Source of the DNA: a virus
Length of the DNA: 64,000 nucleotides
Direction: 5' to 3' (one strand)
Virus record (IMG/VR): IMGVR_UViG_3300048583_000034
Location: 1 to 64,000 of that record
The translations under genes and the position numbers were made by a program. Under the pieces are notes generated by a model. That model worked only from the letters and a program-made list of their open reading frames with translations, did no database searches and was not told the DNA's origin. Below, piece after piece: positions 31,040-54,210 of this stretch; the first letter of the stretch is position 1, and each line of letters opens with the position of its first letter.

Positions 31040-31480
31040 ATGCAAAACACGTAGGTAACAGATGCCGCAACATCTGTAAAAGTCGGAAAAGATCTTACAG
31101 ATCTGAAAGAAGTGATTAAGTCAACAGCACTAGATGCTAAATTGACTAGACAAGAGGAACAGAAGATTAAGTCTTCTCAAAAAATTATCCAATATCAATA
31201 TTGGCCGAGAATTGATCCTGATAAAGAATCGAATAGATTCTGGGATTTGAGAAGTCATAGAACAGGAACTCTTAAAAGAAGAGCAAGAAGTATGCTATTG
31301 GCATACGCATTCCTTAGAGGGGTTCCATATTCCAAAGTCGAACCCAATAAAAAACCAATTAATGGTTATTGGGAACAAGTGCAATGGAATGATCAAATCG
31401 TGAAACCATTAAAGGAGTGGGCTGCTGAATATGGCGGAAAAAACTTTGATGATGAAATCGAAACTTGGTTGACATTATAA
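31040..31480 (+). CDS. 146-aa hypothetical protein requiring amber readthrough at codon 5
   Basis: ATG CAA AAC ACG TAG GTA... in frame with ORF 31112..31480; LLAYAFLRG.PY..VE motif. Confidence 0.65.
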
Positions 31481-31512: not shown

Positions 31513-31583
31513 GCCGAAATAGTTCAATGGTAGAACAGCTCACTCTAAATGAGCCTATGTGGGTTCAATCCCCACTTTCGGCA
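31513..31583 (+). tRNA. Amber suppressor tRNA (anticodon CTA)
   Basis: Fully paired cloverleaf: GCCGAAA/TTTCGGC and GCTCA-CTCTAAA-TGAGC; no encoded CCA. Confidence 0.92.
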
Positions 31584-31590
31584 CTTAAAA

Positions 31591-38636: not shown

Positions 38637-38721
38637 GGAAGATTGGCAGAGTGGTAATGCGTCTGGTTGCTAACCAGTAGCCTACCGAAAGGTAGCGGGA
38701 GTTCGATCCTCTCATCTTCCG
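38637..38721 (+). tRNA. tRNA-Ser(GCT)
   Basis: Variable arm CTACC-GAAA-GGTAG. Confidence 0.9.
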
Positions 38722-38750
38722 CATTGTTTTGTGATATGTTTAAAAATAAA

Positions 38751-38822
38751 AGGTCCATCGTATAATGGTTAATACAGAGGCTTCCAACCCCTCTGATCTG
38801 CGTTCGATTCGTAGTGGACCTG
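38751..38822 (+). tRNA. tRNA-Trp(CCA)
   Basis: AGGTCCA/TGGACCT-G. Confidence 0.87.
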
Positions 38823-38825
38823 CTG

Positions 38826-39069
38826 TAAGATTATTAAGGATGTTGGCCTAAAGGTAGCAATCATATAATGAGTAACGAATATACAACAAGAAATTAACCT
38901 AGGTGTAGGGAGAAATCGGTAGAGTATATCGGGGAAACTGGCTAGAGTTTGATATGTTTGGTCCCCTTAGCCAAAGGGACTTAATGATTATATAGATACA
39001 CTGGAAAATAATCAGATGCATATCAAGACCCGCAGAGTTTTTGGTGTAATAACACGCTTTCTAATCTTA
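38826..39069 (+). ncRNA. RNA containing a split mimic of the 23S rRNA uL11-binding domain (H43/H44)
   Basis: AGGATGTTGGCCTAAAGGTAGCAATCATATAATGAGT ... GTGTAATAACACGCT, closed by TAAGATTA/TAATCTTA. Confidence 0.8.
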
Positions 39070-39074
39070 TTAAT

Positions 39075-39145
39075 GTCTCGTTGGTCAAATGGTAAGGCGG
39101 CGGATTGCAAATTCGCAGTTGGGGGTTCGATTCCCTCACGGGACT
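39075..39145 (+). tRNA. tRNA-Cys(GCA)
   Basis: Cloverleaf, U73. Confidence 0.9.
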
Positions 39146-39185
39146 CTTGACTTCTTAAAACACTAGGTTACAATACGAATTCAAT

Positions 39186-39644
39186 ATGAATCAGCAATTA
39201 CTAGATCATGACTCTGAAACACTCAAGCATGTTAACTGTGTTCGAGAAAATTTATGGACTCTGATCAAAGAACTGGATAAGCGAGCACAAGTCCATGATG
39301 CTTCTAAATTTGAAGAACCTGAACGTAGTGTGTTTGCAGAGAATACTCCTAAGTTGGCAAGGACTGAATATGGCACACCAGAATATACAGAACTCCTAAA
39401 AGAAGTTAAGGTCGCCATTGATCATCATTATGCCAAGAACACTCACCATCCTGAGCATTGGCCAAATGGTATTGAGGATATGGATCTTTTGGACTTGGTG
39501 GAAATGTTGTCGGACTGGGCTGCTGCAACTAAAAGGAACAAGAATGGGAACATTCATAAATCGATTGAACACAACCAAACAAGATTTGGTATCAGTGAAC
39601 AGTTATCGAAAATCTTTACCAACACAGTGAATAGATATTTTTAA
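39186..39644 (+). CDS. HD-like protein (DUF5662-like)
   Basis: HDASK, HHY..N.HHPEH and EML.DW motifs. Confidence 0.7.
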   Translation: MNQQLLDHDSETLKHVNCVRENLWTLIKELDKRAQVHDASKFEEPERSVFAENTPKLARTEYGTPEYTELLKEVKVAIDHHYAKNTHHPEHWPNGIEDMDLLDLVEMLSDWAAATKRNKNGNIHKSIEHNQTRFGISEQLSKIFTNTVNRYF

Positions 39645-52686: not shown

Positions 52687-54210
52687 TTACCTTAAGAGAT
52701 TCTTCAACATCTGAGAATAAGCTTCTTGGAACGGTCCAGAAAGAATCAACCCAGCAATCTCTTTCATCCTTTGCTCATCTGGATCTTCTCCAGCGTTCAA
52801 CGTCTCTAGAACATATTCGTTTAGAGCGTCAGTTATTGAGCGAAAGTGTGTCTTATCCTTTTGCAAGACCGGAAACCAAGTCATAAGTTTAGCCCCATCG
52901 AAATATTGCTTTAACTTAAGTCTCGTTTCGTCTCTGGTTCCACCAATACGTTGAACCTTCTCTTCTGCTCTAGCAATCTTAGCGTTGAATTCATCAGCGT
53001 TAAAATGTGCTGGTCCTCTGGAAGCTTCGTCGCAATATCCAACAGCTTTCACAACTTCCCATGCTGGGTCGTTAATAAGAGCAGTCAGAGTCTTGATGTT
53101 AAGTTTATCCAGATTATGAATAAGCATATGCTTCTCCACAGCAAATAGAATATGTTTCTTATCTTGGGGAGAGAGTTCCGAGAACTTTAACGTCCTGAAG
53201 ATCCTATCCACGATAGGAACACCTGCTCCATCATGACCGTGATAGTTCGAGAAGCCATTATCCTTACGTCCTCTCGTAGTCGCTTTACCAAAGTCATGGA
53301 AAAGAACGGCAAGGTTTATAACGGGATCAGTATATGGGGACACTTTCAAACATTCATAGATATGTCCCAGCACTTGAGCATCACCTTCTGGATGATGTTG
53401 GGGATCATGATCGAATCCTTCCATAGCAGTAAACTCGGGAAGAATGTCGTGTAGAATGCCCGTCTCTTGTAACTTGTGTAGAAAGTTCGCCAGAGTCTTA
53501 CCAGACTTCGCAGACTTATAAAACTCTTTGGAAATGCTTTCCTTGGAAATCGCCTCTGGATTAGATAACAAACTCTTTAGTTCGATAGCAGCTTGTTTGG
53601 TTCCTTCTTCAATATCGAAGCCCATCTTAGCAGCAAATCTAAAGACACGTAGAATTCTAGTGGCATCTTCCTGAAATCTCTTTTTTGGATCACCCACAGC
53701 ACGCACCAGAGAGTTTTTCAAGTCCTCCAGACCACCCTGAAAGTCCACGATCTGTCCAGACGCATCCAGACCAAAGGAATTGATCGTAAGGTCTCTACGC
53801 GCAGTGTCAGCTTCAAAGGAATCCGTCTCAGTGGAGACGTTGTTCTGTCTCCCGATGTCTCCCGAATCCGTTCTGAATTTCGCAAGGTCATACCAATAGT
53901 TTCCCCACTTAATTGTAAACACAGGTTGTAAATCATCCTTAGAGATATTTCTCATCTCATAAAGTTCTGATAACTTCTCCAGAGGAATATTGGTGGCCAT
54001 ATCCACATCATCAATTTCATTCCCCATAAGAAGATCTCTAGGAACCCCACCAACAATATAAATATCACCCTTTAGTTTTGACTTGATATTCTTCATTAAA
54101 TCAAGAGCAACTCTCAATTCTTCAGAAGATTCCACAGCTTTTATCCACTTGGCATCAAAGTCATCACCATACTTCTCTAGAAGCATATAGCGCAGTTTGT
54201 CGAATTTCAT
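52687..54210 (-). CDS. cca: CCA-adding enzyme (class II nucleotidyltransferase) with HD domain
   Basis: VGGVPRD, DVD, RRDLTIN, EDATRILR, HHPEG and LFHDFGK motifs. Confidence 0.88.
   Translation of the reverse strand: MKFDKLRYMLLEKYGDDFDAKWIKAVESSEELRVALDLMKNIKSKLKGDIYIVGGVPRDLLMGNEIDDVDMATNIPLEKLSELYEMRNISKDDLQPVFTIKWGNYWYDLAKFRTDSGDIGRQNNVSTETDSFEADTARRDLTINSFGLDASGQIVDFQGGLEDLKNSLVRAVGDPKKRFQEDATRILRVFRFAAKMGFDIEEGTKQAAIELKSLLSNPEAISKESISKEFYKSAKSGKTLANFLHKLQETGILHDILPEFTAMEGFDHDPQHHPEGDAQVLGHIYECLKVSPYTDPVINLAVLFHDFGKATTRGRKDNGFSNYHGHDGAGVPIVDRIFRTLKFSELSPQDKKHILFAVEKHMLIHNLDKLNIKTLTALINDPAWEVVKAVGYCDEASRGPAHFNADEFNAKIARAEEKVQRIGGTRDETRLKLKQYFDGAKLMTWFPVLQKDKTHFRSITDALNEYVLETLNAGEDPDEQRMKEIAGLILSGPFQEAYSQMLKNLLR

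Follow-up and report, generated by a model that had tools for sequence, protein, structure and literature searches.

The closest described system to the element reported here is the GTPase-associated centre (GAC) of 23S rRNA, made up of the top of H42 together with H43 and H44; in E. coli, nucleotides 1051-1108 form a 58-nt domain that binds uL11 and thiostrepton. The biochemistry of this rRNA domain with L11 and thiostrepton has long been established. Imitations of the rRNA site of a ribosomal protein are found in the mRNA leaders of cellular ribosomal protein operons, which are cis-acting, autoregulatory and loose mimics. To our knowledge, uL11 is the sole ribosomal protein known to bind the isolated GAC fragment (Conn 1999, Wimberly 1999). 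Taken out of the ribosome, the 58-nt domain still adopts its fold, and L11 binds it (PMC2719339).

We analysed a 64,000-nt stretch of viral DNA (the window). It makes up the opening 64 kb of a 99-kb virus record in IMG/VR whose completeness is put at ~48%. The window encodes a T4-type portal and a major capsid protein, the latter no more than about 34% identical to its counterparts in cultured phages, among which those of cyanomyoviruses come nearest; the source is an uncultured T4-like phage. Between 31.5 and 39.1 kb lie 24 tRNA genes, all on the + strand, and the element fills the 251-nt gap (38824-39074) separating the final two. We found no ORF of 45 aa or more overlapping the element. Judging from sequence comparison, 38824-39074 is probably the gene of a stable non-coding RNA of ~250 nt that belongs to a family of phage RNAs. 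The flanking genes had been read as tRNA-Trp and tRNA-Cys, and both identities stood up: ARAGORN called Cys(GCA) downstream, and upstream, where it assigned an oddly looped Gly(tcc), alignment with Infernal gave a 7-nt loop, UUCCAAC, with the anticodon CCA (Trp). A C.C mismatch closes the anticodon stem of this upstream tRNA. The first gene of the array (31513-31584) is a tRNA with the anticodon CUA, of the amber suppressor type (72.5 bits). Genome-wide recoding of TAG, considered as an explanation for this tRNA, is not supported: large ORFs were not longer when TAG was read as sense.

The closing stem of the element starts 2 nt after the upstream tRNA and ends 5 nt before tRNA-Cys (Table 1). 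It consists of eight Watson-Crick pairs (TAAGATTA with TAATCTTA), stands in place of H42 and carries no rRNA sequence. Inside it, a two-position mismatch (UU opposite UC) is followed by the pairs A38836-U39059, A38837-U39058 and G38838-C39057, equivalent to 1053-1055/1104-1106, and by G38839 opposite G39056, the counterpart of G1056.A1103 in rRNA. The H43 copy has two stems (38840-42/38862-64 and 38845-47/38857-59) with A1067 at 38850 in the loop and a single G.A mismatch, G38845.A38859 (1062.1076). Next come the 1082-1086 pair, A38865-U38869, and the equivalents of G1087 (38870), A1088 (38871), G1089 (38872) and U1090 (38873). The insert is closed by AAC (38874-76) and GUU (39037-39), followed by facing GA steps; its interior holds a hairpin (38961-38982) and a long helix (TTGATATG, 38949-56, with CATATCAA, 39019-26). 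Together with the UUUG linker, the 166-nt insert places 170 nt between U1090 (38873) and G1091 (39044). In the H44 copy, the pairs G39044-C39053 and U39045-A39052 enclose the loop GUAAUA (39046-51); A1101 (39054) then pairs with U1090 (38873) and C1102 (39055) with G1087, and beyond them lie the 3' partners of pairs 1054-1055.

Table 1. Positions of the parts of the window's element, of its flanking tRNAs and of the sarcin-ricin loop copies in five relatives.
Feature	Position	Strand	Basis or remark
Upstream tRNA, most likely tRNA-Trp(CCA)	38751..38823	+	ARAGORN; Rfam tRNA 49.4 bits
Closing stem, 5' strand UAAGAUUA	38826..38833	+	8 bp; R1 model and family covariation
Equivalents of 1053-1056	38836..38839	+	comparison with E. 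coli 23S and family counts
H43 copy (1057-1081)	38840..38864	+	comparison with E. coli 23S; R1
Equivalents of 1082-1090	38865..38873	+	comparison with E. coli and family counts
Insert, 166 nt	38874..39039	+	branches from H44, between 1090 and 1091
UUUG linker, from insert to G1091	39040..39043	+	conserved in family
H44 copy (1091-1105)	39044..39058	+	comparison with E. coli 23S; R1
Closing stem, 3' strand UAAUCUUA	39062..39069	+	base pairing; R1 match
Downstream tRNA-Cys(GCA)	39075..39146	+	ARAGORN; Rfam
Sarcin-ricin copy	L011:5852-5863		
Sarcin-ricin copy	L127:3365-3376		
Sarcin-ricin copy	L037:3789-3800	-	
Sarcin-ricin copy	L085:1392-1403	-	
Sarcin-ricin copy	L191:8505-8516	-	

The first-pass annotation had aligned the element with E. 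coli 23S rRNA. We repeated the comparison with the sequence of E. coli K-12 rrlH, reading nt 1030-1129 (23S nucleotide N is position N+59 of L002), and obtained the same counts: 28 identities in 35 between 38837-38871 and nt 1054-1088, with mismatches at 1065, 1068, 1070, 1072, 1076, 1082 and 1086, and 11 in 15 between 39044-39058 and nt 1091-1105. The 8-bp closing stem, the ~170-nt insert and the helices named within it, including GTCCC (38962-66) with GGGAC (38977-81), are all present. So are the two base changes that had been singled out, the conversion of the 1072.(1092-1099) triple to T.T-A (T38855, T39045 and A39052) and that of the 1082-1086 pair to A38865-T38869. GTAATA (39046-51), G1071 (G38854), G1091-C1100 (G39044-C39053) and A1088 (A38871) are kept as described. 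A1067 (A38850) and A1095 (A39048), also listed as kept, are indeed kept in the window, but neither is invariant in the family. When the whole 23S rRNA was compared with the window by blastn, 1054-1088 against 38837-38871 ranked first (E 0.007; runner-up E 1.5), a modest match that by itself is no more than suggestive.

Scans of viral contigs with degenerate patterns turned up over 110 distinct elements built like the window's, all of them unannotated. A 5'-block pattern run over IMG/VR (scan 1) gave 16 loci, three of them true 23S genes. In the remaining loci, as in the window, a stem of unrelated sequence precedes an H43-like block that ends in UUAAAGAGU; a variable insert comes next, then UUUGGYGUAAYAGCACACU and the complement of the stem. 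A 3'-block pattern (scan 2), which excludes real 23S rRNA because the sequence there is GCUCACU, gave at least 119 loci, most with an H43-like block upstream, and yielded at least 80 distinct elements 90-416 nt long. A 5' variant pattern that left the 3' block free (scan 3) gave 44 further loci; 40 match the covariance model described below, and 31 distinct elements were usable for base counts. The sequences are pattern-retrieved and related, with some conserved columns fixed by retrieval, and the statistics ignore phylogeny; our claims on 1067, 1072 and the 1093-1098 loop rest on pattern-free columns only.

We then aligned 27 short members, with the window left out (alignment A1), wrote the structure from the rRNA numbering and built a model, R1. 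Against the window and the 99-kb record, R1 gave a sole match, 38827-39068 (79.5 bits, E 7e-23), which spans the full length of the model (positions 1-171); other members score 57-110 bits. The genuine domain of E. coli is likewise recognized by R1, at 23S nt 1044-1115 (57.3 bits, E 2e-16) and with the insert scored as deleted, and this recognition ties the family objectively to the GAC. Further features common to the window's element and the family are a concerted state of the triple (here U.U-A), a helix that closes the insert (here AAC/GUU), the UUUG linker and the 1090-1101 pair (U38873-A39054). At each of the seven positions where the window's 5' block differs from E. coli, it shows a state that recurs in the family.

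A blastn search of GenBank phages with 38700-39200 (1e-5) returned no match, because the window's copy is too diverged; when a more typical member served as the query, cultured phages were found. R1 confirmed that Cronobacter phage GAP32 (JN882285.1 289510-289763; 93.9 bits) and Aeromonas phage 4_4572 (MK813943.1 75076-75369; 94.6 bits, 24 nt before tRNA-Met) carry copies, neither of them annotated, and BLAST with the 5' block also retrieved Pectobacterium CBB and Yersinia fHe-Yen9-04. Rfam 15 at gathering thresholds reported tRNAs only in the window, and tRNAs plus one tmRNA in ten member loci; for 38700-39200 at E <= 10 it gave nothing relevant, with no LSU and no Intron_gpI. Our search of the full-text literature found no description of such an RNA. 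The family is thus large and, as the first-pass annotation had supposed for the window's RNA, apparently undescribed, being absent from the databases and literature searched. Across 185,579 bacterial and archaeal genomes (one per species), the 3' pattern matched 35 times; the model rated four matches as strong and five as weak, all nine on contigs of metagenome-assembled genomes, and the rest are chance matches. The family is essentially confined to phages.

Covariation supports the structure taken from rRNA. In A1, 95.4% of cells pair, compared with 37-60% when the partners are slid, and the covariation score is 0.636 against 0.11-0.15, a value reached by none of 500 shuffles. The outer stem covaries and uses all four Watson-Crick types, and the helix that closes the insert (helix 5 of A1) covaries in the family as well. 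In the 80 elements among the matches listed, 1058-1080 is UA in 31, GC in 22, AU in 16 and CG in 3, and 1082-1086 is UA in 46, AU in 17 and CG in 4. Given 15 members of one subfamily, RNAalifold arrived without guidance at the outer stem, H43 and upper H44; the insert was not recovered. The minimum free energy fold of the window's element is no better than those of shuffled sequences (z = -0.73), and its H43 pairing departs from the comparative one.

The 1072.(1092-1099) base triple covaries as a unit. Among 111 distinct elements from two independently retrieved sets, we counted C.C-G 63 times, U.U-A 45 times and U.U.G three times, with no discordant combination (Fisher p 1e-32, relatedness ignored); position 1072 was free in every retrieval pattern. 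Each class of the other covarying pairs contains both states of the triple, so the triple has switched repeatedly. The compensatory changes noted at the triple and at 1082-1086 therefore recur as covariation in more than 100 relatives, in agreement with the first-pass proposal of a selected three-dimensional copy of H43/H44. That annotation had also called for homologs with covariation, and the family supplies them.

We then asked which single bases are held. U1060 and A1077 are present in 80 of 80 elements and A1088 in 69 of 69 (elements among the matches listed, where retrieval leaned to the rRNA base), and G1093 and A1098 in 31 of 31 from scan 3, in which the hexaloop was free. G1071 and G1091-C1100 are constant, but they were fixed or favoured by the retrieval or counting patterns and their counts carry no weight; A at 1101, seen throughout, is likewise fixed by the retrieval patterns. 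The linker is UUUG in 23 of 31 elements where it was pattern-free, the rest having UUUA, CUUG or UUCG, and in 80 of 80 elsewhere, where the pattern imposed it. A1067 is replaced in 26 of the 80 elements among the matches listed and A1095 in 6 of the 31 from scan 3, with bases 1095-1097 variable. The G.A at 1062.1076 seen in the window (A1076) occurs in 12 of 80 relatives among the matches listed, and an A at 1061 in 25 of 80 elements among them. In the isolated 58-nt domain, A at 1061 is reported to stabilize the tertiary fold (PMC2719339). Since the tips at 1067 and 1095 vary while the fold-forming bases are invariant where they were free, the selected property is the fold, that is, the uL11 platform, and not the loop tips that face thiostrepton and factors. 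The family thereby provides a natural mutational map of the GAC fold, including the frequent A at 1061.

The inserts range from about 38 to about 360 nt and have no sequence shared across the family. In the window the motifs run in the order AAC-GAA, GUAUAUCGGGGAA, hairpin, ACUUAAU, AGAUG, GACCCGCAGAG, and the same order is found in L006, L023, L061, L203 and other members of one subfamily. In the five members whose inserts are largest (365-407 nt), we found the sarcin-ricin loop sequence AGUACGRGAGGA, expected by chance ~0.5 times over all loci together (Table 1). These copies sit in four covarying closing stems (UUGCA/UGCAA, UGCAU/AUGCG, UUCCA/UGGAA and CCCGC/GCGGG); in those five relatives a single RNA thus carries a copy of each half of the GTPase-binding site of the ribosome. 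The motif is absent from the window's insert, which has the plain hairpin at 38961-38982 and then ACUUAAU where the large-insert relatives appear to hold the sarcin-ricin arm.

Other members depart from the common design in other ways. In L100, L102, L030, L113, L010, L015 and L192, the flanks extend the rRNA likeness into H42 (gacagccAGGAUG ... CACACUggccgagcc), and this subfamily may copy part of the uL10 site as well. In L030, L113, L114, L035 and L055, the 3' strand of H43 is interrupted at ~1077/1078 by a second expansion hairpin, which resembles an rRNA expansion segment. L195, on a 2.7-kb contig, is a 72-nt copy without any insert and may be a true rRNA fragment. The nearest relative found for the window's element, L060:1684-1860 (-), lies between tRNA-Val and tRNA-Cys and is a remnant without an H43 block; what survives, 75% identical over 109 nt, is the 3' portion of the insert together with the H44 block. 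Because only the 3' half is left there, the element can be lost and is dispensable in at least one lineage.

Association with tRNA genes extends beyond the window. A tRNA lies within 3 kb in 58 and within 100 nt in 29 of the 80 elements among the matches listed, and no more than 30 nt from the segment taken for the closing stem in 23 of these 80; the tRNAs within 3 kb of the elements listed number 309 on the same strand and 0 on the opposite strand. L075 repeats the window's order of tRNA-Trp, element and tRNA-Cys, and the element of L018 is ~2 kb from a phage tmRNA. Adjoining same-strand tRNAs make co-transcription with the array and liberation by tRNA-processing nucleases likely, and from this context it is plausible that the window's element is released by processing of the tRNAs on either side. 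It would be transcribed with the array from the + strand, freed at its 5' side by 3'-end processing of tRNA-Trp, and given its 3' end by the RNase P cut at the 5' end of tRNA-Cys. A scan of the array for promoters and terminators gave nothing above shuffles; the best + strand site, at 31469, comes ahead of the first tRNA, and a further one, at 39147, comes after tRNA-Cys. The latter is a near-consensus sigma-70-like promoter, TTGACT-16 nt-TACAAT (39147-39174), directly after tRNA-Cys, and the next gene is that of a DUF5662 protein (39186-39644). The product of the window's gene at 52687-54210 (-) has a PolyA_pol head domain (E 4e-23) and belongs to the CCA-adding tRNA nucleotidyltransferase / poly(A) polymerase family, which fits a phage that matures the products of its own tRNA array.

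We considered what such an RNA might do. The GAC domain folds alone and binds L11, and uL11 is its only known protein ligand in isolation; the conservation agrees best with uL11. We therefore rank first, at a probability of roughly 0.6, a reading in which the element is an off-ribosome, uL11-binding imitation of the GAC. The two ends of the RNA, joined by the generic closing stem, would rebuild the uL11-binding domain with H43, H44 and their tertiary contacts, and the variable domain would leave H44 between U1090 and G1091. Away from the ribosome this fold would bind host uL11. We found no uL11 gene (PF00298, PF03946) in the ~48% complete 99-kb record. The RNA or its RNP would then imitate the ribosomal GAC as a decoy or sponge. 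It might draw uL11, and whatever recognizes the uL11-RNA platform, off ribosomes, for example blunting uL11-dependent activation of RelA, or it might absorb something aimed at the GAC site. The 170-nt branch within H44 could alter or occlude the protein face.

Three other identities were tested and do not fit. As a 23S gene or fragment, the element has the wrong flanks (tRNA genes and an unrelated stem), no LSU match at E <= 10, and an H44 split by 170 nt. A group I intron within rRNA-like exons was dismissed for want of an Intron_gpI match (E <= 10) or a shared core, the U|...G| boundaries being the sole resemblance. A mimic of a ribosomal protein leader would lie in the 5' UTR of a ribosomal protein operon, but here the next gene is tRNA-Cys, then that of the DUF5662 protein, with no Rfam match and no uL11 gene in the record.

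Among the alternatives to uL11 binding as the main function, the one that survives best, though we consider it unlikely, is that the RNA, with or without uL11, serves as bait for an attack on the ribosome. It would absorb a defence, a competitor's toxin or a small molecule that recognizes the GAC, such as an RNA ADP-ribosyltransferase, a nuclease or glycosidase, or a thiopeptide. A parallel exists in phage tRNAs, which replace or evade tRNA-targeting defences, and the element itself sits in tRNA arrays. The sarcin-ricin loop is the other classic toxin target, and it is what the large-insert relatives add; the window's copy, for its part, has no such arm but keeps A1067 and the GUAAUA loop identical to rRNA. 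Against this idea, we know of no anti-phage system that targets the GAC site, and the variation at 1095-1097 and 1067 in the family is odd for bait that should resemble its target. A toxin for exactly this site does exist, however: Tre23 ADP-ribosylates H44 at nt 1095-1098 and impairs the GTPase activity of EF-G (PMC8661411).

The relaxed factor-facing bases bear also on a second alternative, in which the RNA and uL11 together form a free-standing mimic of the factor-docking site, a trap or platform holding translational GTPases or RelA-type enzymes away from ribosomes. As far as is known, isolated GAC RNA with L11 binds factors only weakly, most members, including the window's, are without a sarcin-ricin arm, and the relaxed A1067 and A1095, which contact factors, weaken any version of a factor decoy. 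Some relatives do combine a GAC copy and a sarcin-ricin loop copy in one molecule, and together these form the GTPase-binding site in the ribosome (PMC8661411). Phage genomes also contain genes for proteins with a bL12 domain in which the contact residues for uL11 and EF-G/EF-Tu are retained (PMC6375957). Weighing these points, we regard such a trap, which would serve to redirect host translation or the stringent response, as improbable.

It is more improbable still that the GAC-like fold is a handle, a stable protein-protected scaffold for a real function held in the insert. Inserts are long, and ordered motifs are common to the members of a subfamily; yet their length varies from about 38 to about 360 nt with no family-wide sequence, and it is the GAC part that is conserved to its tertiary contacts. 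A functionless relic (a captured piece of a host 23S gene in decay, what an rRNA intron or a mobile element left behind, or simply a spacer or a processing signal within the tRNA array) is hardly credible, since the truncated L060 and the U before and G at the end of the insert, as at group I splice sites, are outweighed by compensatory changes in helices and base triple over more than 100 elements, the absence of rRNA flanks and of any Rfam intron or LSU match even at E <= 10, and inserts of ~38 nt that are too short for group I introns.

Returning to the off-ribosome imitation of the GAC that binds uL11, we put forward a wider reading, tentatively and with more doubt than belief. Large phages may make a free-standing RNP imitation of the factor-docking site that acts in trans on the host; with the uL11 platform always present and the sarcin-ricin loop added in some lineages, it may capture uL11, GTPases or RelA-type enzymes, or soak up toxins. 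If this holds, the stringent response would be silenced, translation redirected or toxins absorbed, and the RNA would form a novel class of viral RNA for taking over the host or countering its defences.

We know of no virus or mobile element with a stand-alone copy of a functional rRNA centre. The family places such a copy in more than 100 phage lineages, conserved down to single tertiary contacts, and this conservation means that the function must depend on the three-dimensional shape of the uL11 platform. Once known, that function would expose a previously unseen strategy by which phages deal with the translation apparatus of the host, with the stringent response or with defences aimed at ribosomes. 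The family would also extend the translation toolkit that large phages carry by a new class of gene, beside tRNAs, tmRNA and ribosomal proteins, and because cultured carriers exist, the question is directly testable.

Overall, the element shares with the 23S GAC its helices, U1060, A1088, G1071.(G1091-C1100), the 1082-1086 pair, G1093, A1098 and the 1072.(1092-1099) triple, which covaries; the window's copy also keeps A1067 and the GUAAUA loop. Unlike the GAC, it lies outside any rRNA gene, alone between phage tRNA genes and closed by an unrelated stem; its H44 is broken by the 170-nt branch including the UUUG linker, U1101 is changed to A (a position fixed by the patterns), and A1067 and A1095 are relaxed in the phage family. 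Similar to the mRNA leaders of ribosomal proteins (e.g., the L10 leader, RF00557), it is an RNA that imitates the rRNA site of a ribosomal protein off the ribosome; in contrast to those leaders, it is a near-exact copy of the fold and stands beside tRNA genes, with no ribosomal protein gene nearby. Its genomic niche and likely mode of production are those of the tRNAs of phage arrays, tmRNA, GOLLD and ROOL, but it has no Rfam 15 match to any of these RNAs, and none of them copies an rRNA domain.
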